Shown in pieces: positions 42,001 through 47,797 of a DNA stretch of 47,797 nucleotides (the stretch's first letter is position 1; every line of letters starts with the position of its first letter). The position numbers were made by a program. The stretch is taken from UHGV virus genome UHGV-0177318, one strand, 5' to 3'. The stretch comes from a virus.

Positions 42001-45000
42001 CTGCCTGCAATACCTCGCAACCCTCCCAGATAACACCATCGACCTTATTGTTACGGATCCGCCTTATTTTAAGGTGAAGCCGAACGGCTGGGATAATCAG
42101 TGGAATGGTGACGCCGACTATCTTCGCTGGCTTGATATGTGTCTTGCCCAGTTCTGGCGAGTGCTTAAGCCTGCCGGCAGCCTGTATTTGTTTTCAGGTC
42201 ACCGACTTGCATCCCATATTGAGATCATGATGCGTGAACGCTTCAACGTCATGAACCACATTATCTGGGCGAAGCCATCAGGGCGCTGGAACGGGTGTAA
42301 TAAAGAAAGCCTGCGCTCTTACTTTCCCGCGACGGAACGCATCCTTTTCGCTGAGCATTATCAGGGGCCATATAAGCCGAAAAGCGACGGATTTGCTGAG
42401 AAAAGCAACGAGGTCAAACAGCACGTCATGGCTCCGTTAATCACCTACTTTCGGGAAGCACGAGCCGAACTGGGGGTCACGTCCAGGCAAATAGCTGACG
42501 CCACCGGAAAGAAAAATATGGCGTCTCACTGGTTCGGTGCCAGTCAGTGGCAACTACCGAACGAGCAGGATTACGAAAAGCTGCAGGAATTGTTCACTCA
42601 GATCGCCATTGAGAAGCACCGCGCCTCTGAACTCAAAGCACCGCATCACCAGCTGGTGGCCACATGGCATTCGTTGAACCGGAAATACCTTGATCTGCTG
42701 GAAGAGTACAAATCTCTTCGGCGGCATTTCTCTGTGACAGTAGCCGTGCCCTATACAGACGTCTGGACACATAAACCCGTCCAGTTCTATCCAGGCAAAC
42801 ACCCGTGCGAAAAGCCCGCTGATATGTTGCGGCAAATCATCAACGCCAGCAGCAGGCCCGGCGATGTGGTAGCTGATTTCTTTATGGGCTCGGGATCAAC
42901 TGTTAAAGCAGCCATTGAACTGGGCCGCCAGGCTATCGGCGTAGAACTGGAAGAGGAACGTTTCAACCAGACGGTAAGTGAGGTAAGGCAGCTGGCAGGG
43001 GAATAAAAGCTTGGGTCGCTATCGCGGCCCTTTTTATTACCTCAACTGGACACCCGCAACGTAGCGAGGTGAGAGCATGTATCGAATGGAAAAAATCACG
43101 ACGGGTATTGCATACGGCGCATCGGGAGGGGGGACCGGATACTGGTTGCTTCAGCTCCTCGATAAAGTCTCCCCATCTCAATGGGCGGCTATTGGTGTGC
43201 TCGGTAGCCTCATGTTTGGTTTGCTGACGTGGTTAACGAGTCTGTACTTCCAAATCAAAGCGGATCGCCGCAAAGCTGCGCGGGGTGAATGATGTCGAAC
43301 AAAGCAAAGCTCAGCGCAGCAGTGCTGGCGCTAATCGCGTCAGGGGCATCTGCGCCACTCATTTTCGACCAGTTCATCAGCGAGAAAGAAGGAAACGCGC
43401 TGGTGGCCGTTGTTGATCCTGGCGGGGTCTGGTCTCTATGTCACGGCGTGACCGTTATCGATGGCAGGCGTGTTGTTAAAGGCATGACGGCCACTGAGGA
43501 ACAATGCCGGAAGGTTAACGCTATTGAACGCGATAAGGCATTAGCCTGGGTTGATCGCAATATCAAAGTGCCTCTGACAGAGCCACAGAAGGTGGGTATC
43601 GCATCCTTCTGCCCGTATAACATCGGCCCCGGTAAATGCTTCCCATCGACCTTCTATAAGCGTATCAACGCAGGTGACCGCATCGGTGCATGCGAGGCAA
43701 TCCGCTGGTGGATTAAAGATGGTGGCCGTGATTGTCGTCTAACCAAAGGCCAGAAGAATGGCTGCTATGGTCAGGTTGAGCGACGGGACCAGGAAAGCGC
43801 GCTGGCGTGCTGGGGGTTAGACCAATGAAAATTAATCCGGGTCTTTTAGGCGTTGTTGTTATTGCCGTCCTTTCGGTCGCTCTCGTTAAGAGTTGCTCCA
43901 ACGCCAGTAGTCTTCAGAGCGATATCGACGTTCTGCGAAGTGACAACTCTATGCAGGGGCAGGTGATCGCCACCCAGGCATTCAACTTCAATCGATTCAA
44001 TCAGGTTGCAGAACATGCCAACAGGCTTAACTCCCTGATCGACACTAGCACCGAAGAAACCGTAATCGAATACCGGGAGATACTCCGCCGTGAAAAAACC
44101 TGTGATCTGCCTGTTCCTGCTGACATTGCTGGTGGGCTGCTCGAATACGCGTACCGTTTACGTTCCAGCGCAATGCACGCCGATACCGACGGAACTGACG
44201 CAGCCGATGATAGTACCGCTGCCGCCCGTTCAATAACGTACTGCCAGGCTGTGCTCTGGATTAAGCCGTTGCTGGCCGTAATAGAGAAGGGCAACAATAA
44301 CTTCGCTGGCATTCGTCAAGTAGAACAGGAGCGACAATAGGTATGGGCAAATCCTAACGTGAAAATCTGCAGCAGCATTTCCATTATGTTTGGCTGTAAA
44401 TTATCTATCACCATAGGTTTCTTGCGTCATCAGGTAATAGACCGACCTCATAAAAAGAGGTAAATTATTACTTTACGTTGCGCTCAGGTAGACGAGATGG
44501 AAGAACGTCATCACAGCTATATCCTTAAAACTATTGAAGAAATAGGAAGGGGTGGGTTCGGTTACGTTGAAAAAATTGAACTTTTCAATGTTAACGGTCA
44601 CAAATGCGGTGACTACGCCAAAAAGATTTTGGCGCAGGATCATGGGCTTAGCAAAGAGGACTTCAAAAGAAGATTCAAACGGGAAGTGGATTATCAGGCT
44701 AGGTGTACGCACTCGAATATAGCGCCTATATATCTACACAATCTTCAGGTTGATAGTCCTTGGTTTGTTATGGATCTCGCTGAAAGTGATTTAAGTACAG
44801 ATTTAGCCTCAGGCACGCTCGATAATGCAAGCAAAATGCATATTGCAGAAATGATCCTTTCAGGGGTACGTTTCATGCATACAGAGAAAACTAATGATCC
44901 AGGACGTAAGCCAGTATATTTACACCGTGATTTAAAGCCATCTAATATTCTTCGTTTTAAAGATGGAGTTTACAAAATTTCCGATTTTGGTTTAGTAAAA

Positions 45001-47797
45001 AATGCAGGAAAAGAAAGACCAGAATCTGAGCTTTTAACAAGAGTCGCTACAGCCATGGGAACGCTCAAATACATGGCTCCTGAGATAACAACAGCTGGGC
45101 ATTACTCAGAGCAAACTGACATTTTTGCTCTCGGAGTAGTTATTGATGATATGGGGTTTGATAACGTTAATGGTATTAGACAGTTAATCGATAAATGCAC
45201 CGCCTGGAGAGCTGCAAGCCGATACAAATCGGTTGATGATATGATGCAGGAACTGGCTGATATAAAAATAAGGAATGGGCTATGATTACCCTACTTTCAA
45301 GTGGTCTTTTCTCTTACGCTAAAAGTTCTTCGCGTACTAATCAGGATTCTATTCTTGCTCCACAGTGCATCGATAATGGCTATTTGATTGCTGTCGCTGA
45401 TGGCGTTGGCTCGTACTTGGGCGCAGAACACGCTTCACAAACAGCAATTAAATATTTAGCGAACCTAATCAATGCTTCTTCTATCCAAGATCTTGATAGC
45501 CTCTTCGCCACAATAAAAGAAAAGATTTCTGCGTTATCTGACGCTGATGAATCCTATTTAGAAGCTGCAACGACGTTGACGTTTGCATATGTAAACAATC
45601 AAGGTTTGTACATTGGTCATGTTGGTGATTGTCGTTTGTATATTAAAAAAGATAATAAACTCAAACAACTAACGAAAGATCATACCCAACATCAAAAACT
45701 GTTGGATCAGAAGATTTTCAATAAAAAAGAACTTAAGGATATGGGGGGGAAAAACACCCTAACAACTGCGATTTCTAAAGTTATCCCATTGGAATTTCAA
45801 CAAACGTTTATTCCTGCGTCTGAAGTTTTCGAAGACAACGAAGAGGCCACTCTCTACATTCTTTCAGATGGAGCACACCACTTCTGGGATAAGAGACCAA
45901 GATTCTCAATCACTACTTTGAGCAATCCAAACTGTTTTGCAGCTAGCTTGCATAAACGAATTATTCGTAATGGGCCTATAGATGATTTTTCTTTGGTTGT
46001 AGCCAAGTTCAAGCGCAGCAGTGTTAACTAATGGTGTGGTTGAACTTGTAAGACTTACGGCTCAATAAAGGTTCGGGCATACGTAGTTCGTGTTGAACAT
46101 AAGGGCTGAAATTCTGATTACATAGTTGAACAAACTCCATACCAGGGCCACCAGCAATCACTGGTGGTTTTTTTTGCGTATCGCACGCGCACATCAAGGA
46201 AAGTCTTTCAGTTGTGAGCCCGGGCAAACCGTTAACTTTCGGCGGTTTCGCCTTGCGATAGGCGCAATATGGGTTCAACAAAGAGCGCGTTGATGCTGTC
46301 CCGCAGAGCAGGGGCCGCGGGTCCTTTCCGGCTATCTGACATGTTACGGGGCGGCGACCTCGCAGGTTCTCGCTATTTATGAAAATTTTCAGGATTTTGC
46401 CTTTTCCGTTCTTCTTCTTGCTAAGTATCTGTCTTTACTGGGTATAACCCACCACAAGAAAGGAAGTGTTAAAGCCTGGTAGTAGTCATTTTACCCGGCA
46501 TGGTTTCCTTACCCTGTGTTTCGCCTGGAGTTCGTCATGGAGGTCAATAAAAAACGCCTTTCAGAGATTTTTGGTGTCAGCATCCGCACGATCCAGAACT
46601 GGCAGGATCAGGGAATGCCAGTTGCGCGCGGTGGTGGAAAAGGGAATGAAGTGCTTTATGACTCTGCCGCCGTAATCGAATGGTATTCCGCCCGTGACGC
46701 AGCGATAGAAAACGAAAAGCTGCGCAAAGAGGTTGAACAGCTGAGAGTTGATTCAGAATCAGACCTTGTGCCTGGCACGATTGATTATGAGCGCCATAGG
46801 CTTACCCGAGCCCAGGCTGATGCTCAGGAACTAAAAAATGCAAAAGAGTCCGCTGAGGTGGTGGAGACCGCATTCTGCACGTTCGTGCTGTCGCGGATAG
46901 CCGGAGAAATTGCCAGTATCCTTGATGGAATACCTCTGTCGGTTCAGCGGCGCTTTCCGGAACTGGAAAATCGACATATTGATTTCCTCAAGAAGGACAT
47001 CATAAAAGCCATGAACAAAGCAGCTGCGCTGGATGAAATGATACCGGGGTTGCTGAGTGAATATATCGAACAGTCAGGTTAAGGGGCTACAGCACTCCGC
47101 GCGCTCGGGGCTCCGTTCGTTGTACCGGCCAGAACCGCAAACGGCGGTTGAGTGGGCAGACGAAAATTATTACCTTCCAAAAGAGTCTGCTTATCAGGAA
47201 GGGCGCTGGGAAACGCTGCCGTTTCAGCGTGCGATAATGAATGCGATGGGTAATGACTATATCCGCGAGGTCAATGTCGTTAAGTCTGCCCGAGTAGGCT
47301 ATTCAAAAATGCTGCTCGGCGTGTATGCGTATTTCATCCAGCATAAACAACGTAACTCGCTTATCTGGTTACCTACCGACGGTGATGCAGAAAACTTCAT
47401 GAAATCCCATGTCGAACCGACAATCCGGGACATCCCCTCACTGCTGGCGCTGGCGCCCTGGTACGGTAAAAAGCACCGGGACAACACGTTGAGTATGAAA
47501 CGTTTCTCGAATGGGCGAGGTTTCTGGTGCCTCGGTGGTAAAGCTGCAAAAAACTACCGTGAAAAATCTGTTGATGTGGCGGGTTATGACGAGCTGGCGG
47601 CATTTGACGATGATATCGAGAAAGAGGGCTCTCCAACGTTCCTGGGGGATAAACGTATTGAAGGGTCGGTCTGGCCTAAATCGATACGAGGATCCACACC
47701 CAAAATTAAAGGGACATGCCAGATTGAACGTGCCGCCAAGGAGTCAGAGCATTTCTTGCGCTTCTATGTTCCCTGCCCACATTGTGGGGAGGAGCAG

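Follow-up and report, generated by a model that had tools for sequence, protein, structure and literature searches.

The viral genome UHGV-0177318, hereafter the window (47,797 nucleotides, one strand), is that of a phi80-like lambdoid temperate phage, circularly permuted in this record and ~91% identical in DNA to phi80 across the structural genes. Between its lysis genes and the cohesive end site cos (~46349/46350, the point to which position 1 of phi80 aligns) lie two overlapping genes, one for a Hanks-type Ser/Thr protein kinase and the next for a Ser/Thr phosphatase of the PPM/PP2C class (Table 1). An original prediction, made from the sequence alone, had placed such a pair between the lysis cassette and cos and had described it as translationally coupled by an ATGA overlap, more AT-rich than its surroundings and closed by a terminator of its own. 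We confirm this description. The open reading frames (ORFs) and their overlap lie at the predicted coordinates, and the coding pair (44497-46031) has a guanine-plus-cytosine (GC) content of 39.3% vs 52.5% in the remaining window. The terminator is a real hairpin followed by a run of eight T residues (-17.2 kcal/mol, z=-3.06 vs shuffles), although the predicted coordinates (46148..46175) were 4 bases off.

Related phages and prophages align to the window up to ~44314-44341 and resume at ~46317-46349. In E. coli prophages with the same flanks, the interval holds other cargo, namely a KilA-N protein, a Fur-regulated protein or hypothetical genes. Because the relatives differ in their genes at this position, the stretch from Rz to cos is a variable cargo slot and the kinase-phosphatase pair is one alternative cargo. 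The same cassette, at 97% DNA identity, also follows these lysis genes in metagenomic contigs, where it is joined to terminases of two different types. In one of them (L006, 5306-7885, aligned to window 43802-46382), the packaging module is of the Terminase_4/TerL type rather than Nu1/gpA, and the similarity stops at window position 46382, just beyond the phi80-type cos.

Table 1. Features of the kinase-phosphatase cassette and its immediate surroundings in the window
Feature	Position	Strand	Remarks
Rz	ends at 44340	+	upstream of the kinase, after holin and endolysin
Accessory insert (variable cargo slot, Rz to cos)	44341..46316	.	extent relative to related phages
Inferred transcription unit (spacer, kinase, PP2C, terminator)	44341..46171	+	read-through from the Q-dependent late operon can also reach it
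AT-rich tract (upstream spacer and both genes)	44341..46031	.	GC 0.35-0.41 vs ~0.52 in the flanks
AT-rich spacer between Rz and kinase	44341..44496	+	156 nt; no convincing promoter or terminator
Hanks-type Ser/Thr protein kinase (proposed toxin/effector)	44497..45285	+	262 amino acids, 789 bp; bare catalytic domain
ATGA stop/start overlap (translational coupling)	45282..45285	+	4 bases, read from the sequence; shared by 76 of 89 family loci
PPM/PP2C Ser/Thr phosphatase (proposed antidote)	45282..46031	+	249 amino acids, 750 bp
Intrinsic terminator ending the cassette	46144..46179	+	11-bp stem and 6-nt loop (46144-46171), then T8 run
Nu1-like gene	46516-47082		downstream of cos

Profile searches and structure prediction support both enzyme folds, and all motifs originally quoted for the two proteins are present in their translations (GRGGFGYV, HRDLKPSNIL, DFG and YMAPE in the kinase; VADGVGS and HVGDCRLY in the phosphatase). 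The kinase matches Pfam Pkinase (PF00069) with 119.2 bits (cutoff 31.7; E=2.7e-34) and PHROG 2361, 'serine-threonine kinase', at E=1e-67. Its Hanks motif set is complete, comprising the G-loop, the beta3 Lys, the alphaC Glu, HRDxKxxN, DFG, APE, the subdomain IX Asp and the subdomain XI Arg. Across 30 homologues, residues G19, G22, K43, E63, H143-R144-D145, K147, N150, D163-F164-G165, D208 and R242 are invariant, while T181 and the APE residues P195 and E196 are kept in at least 90%. The HRDLKPSN catalytic loop is of the Ser/Thr type, and the enzyme is an RD-type kinase with the nearly invariant T181 in its activation loop. No domains other than Pkinase and PK_Tyr_Ser-Thr were detected in the protein, which stops directly past the kinase domain. 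AlphaFold2 models of both proteins were built on family alignments. That of the kinase reached a predicted local distance difference test score (pLDDT) of 87.9 and a predicted template-modelling score of 0.86, with disorder limited to the activation loop (173-184), and Foldseek aligned it to the kinase domains of TGFbR1, FGFR, IRAK4 and CTR1 with template-modelling (TM) scores of 0.70-0.78. An insertion of 9-11 amino acids (EKTNDPGRKPV) at kinase residues ~131-141 (window 44887-44919), just ahead of the HRD loop and with a pLDDT of ~64, is limited to the window kinase and the four relatives nearest to it; it could form a clade-specific interaction surface.

The phosphatase matches PP2C_2 with 58.7 bits (cutoff 24; E=7.6e-16), and a Stp1-type profile aligns to its residues 18-241. 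All 45 non-redundant homologues share residues D22, D40-G41, T97-T98, H113, G115-D116, R118, D196-G197 and D234-D235. Its model has a pLDDT of 91.7 and adopts the PP2C beta-sandwich fold, with a TM score of 0.81 to PstP of M. tuberculosis (1txo); the closest solved structures are PstP, Stp1, MspP, tPphA and PppA. The phosphatase also matches PHROG 5650, within positions 273-520 of this 565-position profile. This match may mean that some members of the profile are kinase-phosphatase fusions or merged gene calls; no fused gene was seen in ~165 loci. Since the catalytic residues are invariant down to ~32-45% identity and both folds are confirmed, the two enzymes are, as judged by sequence and model, catalytically complete and under selection as active catalysts.

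The claim that the pair has no lambda counterpart is borne out by database searches. Neither the 50,697 deposited phage records nor the 5,426 complete genomes of E. coli yielded near-identical cassette DNA, and homologues were therefore sought at the protein level. Among records of named phages, only Flotzy and phiES15 contain full-length, adjacent homologues of both proteins. A kinase 99% identical to that of the window is annotated from Enterobacter hormaechei, and kinase homologues of ~250 amino acids occur across the Gammaproteobacteria (Enterobacter, Dickeya, Yersinia, Serratia, Pectobacterium, Photorhabdus, Xenorhabdus, Escherichia, Pseudomonas, Xanthomonas, Vibrio and Haemophilus). Of the 5,426 complete E. 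coli genomes, 50 carry one variant, E24377A, 55989, VR50 and ML35 among them, and PGAP names the two products only 'serine/threonine-protein kinase' and 'PP2C family phosphatase'. The patterns HRD[IL]KPxN[IV]L and YK[IV]SDFGL were discarded as search criteria, being generic to Hanks kinases: the 80 loci that they retrieved (L095-L174) encode unrelated kinases of ~30% identity.

Scans of viral contigs yielded the family, considered here at 91 loci with kinases of 36-99% identity. A PP2C gene lies directly downstream of the kinase in 89 of the 91, the other two being contig ends, and most junctions without the 4-base overlap are separated by just a few bases. Every family locus has a single kinase, both proteins are always of ~250 amino acids, and no second intact kinase gene occurs in the 91 loci. 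When the scan was reversed and seeded with the phosphatase, a full kinase was found upstream in 71 of 75 loci. Pairwise distances of kinases and phosphatases co-vary (r=0.77, Mantel 0/2000). In diverged members, DNA homology begins exactly at the kinase ATG and ends near the end of the phosphatase gene, and no conserved third gene is present among the best 25 neighbour families listed per scan (45 loci); the mobile unit therefore consists of the two ORFs alone. The phosphatases form a compact and distinct clade, given that their profile recovers 66 clusters (50% identity) at E<=1e-30 vs 17,435 generic PP2Cs at E<=1e-10. The pair is poorer in GC than its flanks (means 0.378 vs 0.481) in 43 of 44 non-redundant loci, an AT-richness typical of mobile accessory or defence cargo. 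The pair is thus an obligate coupled, mobile unit. In one locus (L071, 8001-9520, compared with window 44497-46031) the kinases are ~72% identical and the phosphatases just 53%, a mosaicism that points to recombination at their junction or to genes changing at unequal rates.

The unit occupies several kinds of genomic position. By a seed-based classification of 45 non-redundant loci, nine carry it between endolysin/Rz and terminase, the arrangement of the window and of phage Flotzy, and eight between Q/RusA and holin, the arrangement of Cronobacter phage phiES15 and of the E24377A prophage of E. coli. Seven have a leftward cro-like gene followed by cI, kinase and PP2C; the remaining 21 were left unclassified. 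Three of the cI-slot loci were scanned for terminators: none lies between cI and the kinase, and a strong one follows within ~50 nt of the PP2C stop. In the cI-rexA-rexB operon of lambda, genes for exclusion that are expressed in the lysogen stand directly after cI. The pair in these seven loci resembles RexAB in lying directly after cI on the same strand and in being a two-gene unit of a lambdoid prophage. Unlike these seven, the window pair follows Rz and not cI, and RexAB has no sequence or fold relationship to the kinase and phosphatase and is not enzymatic in this way. Settings outside phages were also found, among them an integrase-bounded island of E. coli (L009) and a Pseudomonas locus beside type I hsdR/M/S genes and integrases (L013). 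Twelve plasmids carry the pair, small non-mobilizable ones included, and on a 10.7-kb Acinetobacter plasmid it follows a RelE/ParE toxin-antitoxin pair. Taken together, the cI slot, the restriction-modification neighbours, the integrases, the toxin-antitoxin neighbours and the variable slot point to probable expression in the lysogen and to a putative role in defence.

When the pair decays, the two genes are not lost alike. Set against intact relatives at 91-98% DNA identity, independent clean deletions of 684 bp (L216 and L218), 605 bp (L222) and 729 bp (L241) remove most or all of the kinase and leave PP2C intact. Smaller lesions likewise affect the kinase only: L045 has a frameshift, L082 and E. 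coli 510016 share the loss of 10 bp, and L057 shares the loss of 1 bp with four E. coli genomes of the 118UI group. These kinase-only losses amount to six independent events (p ~0.016 if both genes had the same chance of being hit). An intact kinase beside a damaged or absent phosphatase was not found among the surveyed loci. The sole locus with a damaged phosphatase is a decaying prophage of E. coli SY033 (L255, 1-5756), in which an IS3 splits Q, an IS1 removes the N-terminal part of the kinase and a second IS3 cuts PP2C short, so that the kinase is destroyed there too. Such a pattern would be expected if the kinase were harmful without the phosphatase and the pair were expressed when integrated, and it argues modestly for both.

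A loss pattern of this toxin/antidote-like kind, together with the small non-mobilizable plasmids on which the pair adjoins a RelE/ParE pair, would also fit a pure addiction module that stabilises its prophage, island or plasmid by post-segregational killing and plays no part in conflicts between phages. However, addiction in its classical form needs a labile antidote, and we see no sign that an enzymatic PP2C is unstable; in addition, the rexAB-like slot and the restriction-modification neighbourhood suit defence better. We therefore regard pure addiction as very improbable. Addiction and abortive infection are mutually compatible.

The closest functional precedent is KKP (PfpC-PfkB-PfkA), which is carried by Pf6 and by P2, P4 and Mu prophages and in which two kinases are jointly toxic while the PP2C phosphatase PfpC acts as the antitoxin (Guo et al. 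2024, PMC11341870). Gp59 of phage T4 binds PfpC and inhibits it, which leads to abortive infection (PMC11341870). By analogy, we propose that the cassette is a two-gene toxin/antidote phospho-switch by which a lysogen excludes other phages, a reading that we prefer and hold at roughly even confidence. The kinase would be an active Hanks Ser/Thr enzyme that harms the cell if unopposed, probably through phosphorylation of many host proteins. The PP2C, made from the same mRNA by way of the stop/start overlap, would constantly undo phosphorylation on the kinase activation loop, on the substrates or on both, so that kinase and phosphatase would be in balance in the lysogen. Infection by a second phage would tip this balance, whether through a phage protein that blocks the phosphatase or switches on the kinase, or through host shut-off that depletes the phosphatase. 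The cell would then arrest before the invader finishes its cycle, amounting to abortive infection or superinfection exclusion to the benefit of the prophage. The biochemical logic of this scheme is taken from KKP. The original prediction of a self-limiting signalling or defence cassette stands as far as two complete enzymes in an obligate, coupled, AT-rich cargo are concerned, and the contexts and losses favour a restrained kinase; the toxicity of the kinase, the way control runs between the two enzymes, what triggers the switch and its role in defence are our inferences.

KKP also offers a precedent for a different function, because it controls Pf lysogeny through phosphorylation of the nucleoid protein MvaU (PMC11341870). 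The kinase-phosphatase balance could similarly set the phosphorylation state of a regulator, such as an H-NS-type silencer, a repressor or lysis and packaging proteins, and so tune induction, lysis timing or lysogenic conversion, with defence absent or secondary. The positions by cI/cro in 7 of 45 loci and within the late lysis/packaging operon in 17 of 45 are in keeping with such a regulator of the prophage life cycle or of host physiology. Yet the module is also found in an integrase island, beside type I restriction-modification genes and on small plasmids; as it occurs outside any phage, a phage-specific target is unlikely. It also swaps freely among three slots and among phages with different terminases, and the kinase-only losses speak for a costly kinase and not for a fine-tuned regulator. 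A primarily regulatory role thus appears unlikely to us.

How the window pair is transcribed bears on a further possibility. Within the spacer (44341-44496), a consensus scan gave no sigma-70 site on the plus strand and no terminator. The best candidate promoter found there by eye, TAGACC-17-TAAATT, has 8 of 12 matches and is unconvincing, and an internal promoter for the phosphatase (45257-45286) was rejected because its -10 hexamer, TATGAT, includes the phosphatase start codon. No conserved promoter appears to travel with the module, since DNA homology to diverged members begins only at the kinase ATG. Since no terminator separates Rz from the kinase and the pair has no evident promoter, Q-antiterminated late transcription should run into the pair. 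This expected late read-through, and the location of 17 of the 45 non-redundant loci in the late operon, would agree with a function in the lytic cycle, in which a late-transcribed kinase modifies host or defence proteins and the phosphatase limits collateral damage or strips phosphorylation laid down by a defence system. T7 gp0.7 is the model for such kinase-based host takeover. However, expression after the lysis genes comes too late for takeover, the cI-slot and non-phage loci have no lytic context, and the preferential loss of the kinase in integrated prophages implies costly expression in the lysogen. We consider takeover or counter-defence improbable. Both this explanation and the regulatory one are argued against by the non-phage contexts and the kinase-only losses.

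Several points weigh against the exclusion switch that we prefer. The pair sits inside a Q-dependent late operon in the window and in 17 of the 45 loci; no convincing promoter of its own was found in the window, so that expression of the window pair in the lysogen is a proposal, and this is the main weakness of the scheme. The asymmetry in gene loss rests on six events. The pair has no sensor or accessory domain to account for triggering, and its toxin gene comes first, which is not so in KKP and most type II toxin-antitoxin operons. Its PADLOC matches (mad6, PD-T4-6 and Stk2) fall on the generic kinase core only and are no proof of defence ancestry. Finally, KKP also regulates prophage induction (PMC11341870), so defence may be secondary.

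As to novelty, the original prediction had singled out the pair as a candidate for an undescribed system. This can be upheld for the architecture and not for the principle. Defence by a prophage-borne Hanks kinase and PP2C acting as toxin and antitoxin is published (KKP, PMC11341870; TerY-P), in 2020 for TerY-P and in 2024 for KKP, and the pair is therefore not an undescribed kind of system. Like KKP, it is prophage-borne, combines a Hanks Ser/Thr kinase with a PP2C and is restricted to Gram-negative bacteria. Unlike it, KKP consists of three genes in the order phosphatase-kinase-kinase, of 900-1300 bp each, whereas the window has one 789-bp kinase upstream of a 750-bp PP2C. KKP toxicity needs both kinases and their C-terminal domains, FHA in PfkB and CSD in PfkA, and the window kinase has neither. 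The carriers differ as well, being lambdoid phages, islands and plasmids for the pair and P2, P4, Mu and Pf elements for KKP. The pair thus lies outside KKP as defined, a separation drawn from the published description of KKP and not from a sequence comparison.

TerY-P-like modules are validated stand-alone anti-phage systems (Gao 2020, as cited in PMC10542128). The same paper describes the TerY-P triad of Anantharaman 2012 as a TerY-like vWA protein with a kinase that carries a C-terminal zinc ribbon or OB-fold (PMC10542128), and a nucleic-acid-binding role has been suggested for these kinase fusions. TerY-P shares with the pair the use of a PP2C and a Ser/Thr kinase as a phosphorylation switch. 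In contrast, the window kinase is bare (262 amino acids) and has no zinc ribbon or OB-fold, and no vWA gene was found beside the window pair, whose neighbours are Rz and cos/Nu1, or among the best 25 neighbour families listed per scan for the 45 loci. The one-kinase-then-PP2C architecture is therefore outside the definitions of both KKP and TerY-P. A literature search, whose coverage of subscription journals was incomplete, found no paper on a two-gene module of a bare kinase and a PP2C. What is new here is the two-gene, kinase-first architecture free of accessory domains on lambdoid phages, islands and plasmids, a pared-down counterpart of the two three-gene systems.

Two analogues named in the original prediction, the 933W kinase and Stk2, hold as functional parallels and not as relatives. 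The prophage tyrosine kinase Stk of 933W excludes HK97 (PMC3681748). Stk2, 933W Stk and PD-T4-6 resemble the window kinase in being eukaryotic-like kinases, and they bring about abortive infection or exclusion upon a phage trigger, but they are larger proteins with extra regions and have no partner phosphatase. 933W Stk differs further in being a tyrosine kinase, as opposed to the Ser/Thr type of the window catalytic loop, and no Stx-phage record appeared among the 26 records retrieved by tblastn with the kinase from 50,697 phage records at E<=1e-5. The PADLOC match to Stk2 (E=3.6e-24) is confined to the kinase core, at positions 129-354 of the 500-position profile. Membership in Stk2 was rejected because of this partial match and because the window-type kinase is always partnered with a phosphatase. 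Many PD-T4-6 profiles are matched, at best with E=3.3e-34, but over approximately positions 13-205 of profiles 292-547 long, again the shared catalytic core, and automated annotation may mislabel the kinase as PD-T4-6. For MAD6, NF047741 scores 50.6 bits vs a cutoff of 460, the PADLOC mad6 match spans positions 53-246 of 659, and there are no MADS genes nearby. The PADLOC matches to mad6, PD-T4-6, Stk2 and MkoA were thus not accepted as signs of membership in a known defence family, since the alignments cover the core only and the NCBIfam equivalog cutoffs are widely missed, though the strong core match leaves PD-T4-6 membership conceivable.

The pair shares its two enzyme families with the housekeeping operons Stp1/Stk1, PrpC/PrkC and PstP/PknB. 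These, however, are phosphatase-first and have a membrane-bound kinase with PASTA or other sensor domains, whereas the window order is reversed and no extra domain is present; the NCBIfam scores are 97.7 vs a cutoff of 450 and 101.2 vs a cutoff of 230. PP2C-then-kinase pairs of ~25-29% identity were also noted in gut-metagenome and Listeria phage records (MT836046, MT837907, MT835527, MT839068 and OR847153). Such pairs of Gram-positive and gut phages are a separate lineage with the opposite gene order.

Other features of the window were noted in passing. An ORF for an Rz1-type lipoprotein (MKKPVICLFLLTLLVGCSNT...) at 44090-44236 (+) lies inside Rz in another frame, an ordinary two-component spanin arrangement. 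Past the tail-fibre region, 21619-23363 (+) carries as cargo a umuD-like gene (Peptidase_S24, E=1.6e-29) and a umuC-like gene for a Y-family polymerase (IMS, E=1.4e-42), and a gene for an SRAP/YedK-like SOS-response-associated peptidase (24682-25353, -; E=7e-50) is close to the integrase gene (26212-27405). Two DNA methyltransferases, one of 656 amino acids with a C5-cytosine methylase domain (36964-38934, +) and an N6/N4 methylase encoded between Q and holin (41954-43006, +), may be anti-restriction cargo. The phage's own rex-type slot is at 32391-33038 (-), where two small ORFs lie just downstream of a cI-like repressor gene (33391-34017) on the same strand: one of 123 amino acids (32391-32762), which has no Pfam match, and its neighbour of 90 amino acids (32766-33038). 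Both are candidates for another lysogen-expressed function.

In its most general form, the proposal is that a Hanks kinase and a PP2C suffice as a complete sense-and-kill module, in which the catalytic domains themselves, or the balance between them, would serve as the infection sensor. The pair would then be a minimal form of phosphorylation-based immunity, the core of what KKP and TerY-P elaborate, occupying a RexAB-type niche. We put this forward tentatively and think it rather doubtful. If true, the module would fill that niche in enterobacterial lambdoid phages, including those of the pathogenic E. coli strains E24377A and 55989. Among Gram-negative bacteria, anti-phage immunity based on kinases so far rests on two three-gene systems, KKP and TerY-P, and a mobile, strictly paired family with only two catalytic domains would reveal the irreducible core of such a switch. 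Defence-finding tools would overlook the pair or call its kinase PD-T4-6, and its current annotation is generic. It would also provide a simpler system for how a phage tips a kinase-phosphatase balance, one that is directly testable because the pair is present in E24377A, 55989, ML35, VR50, Flotzy and phiES15.

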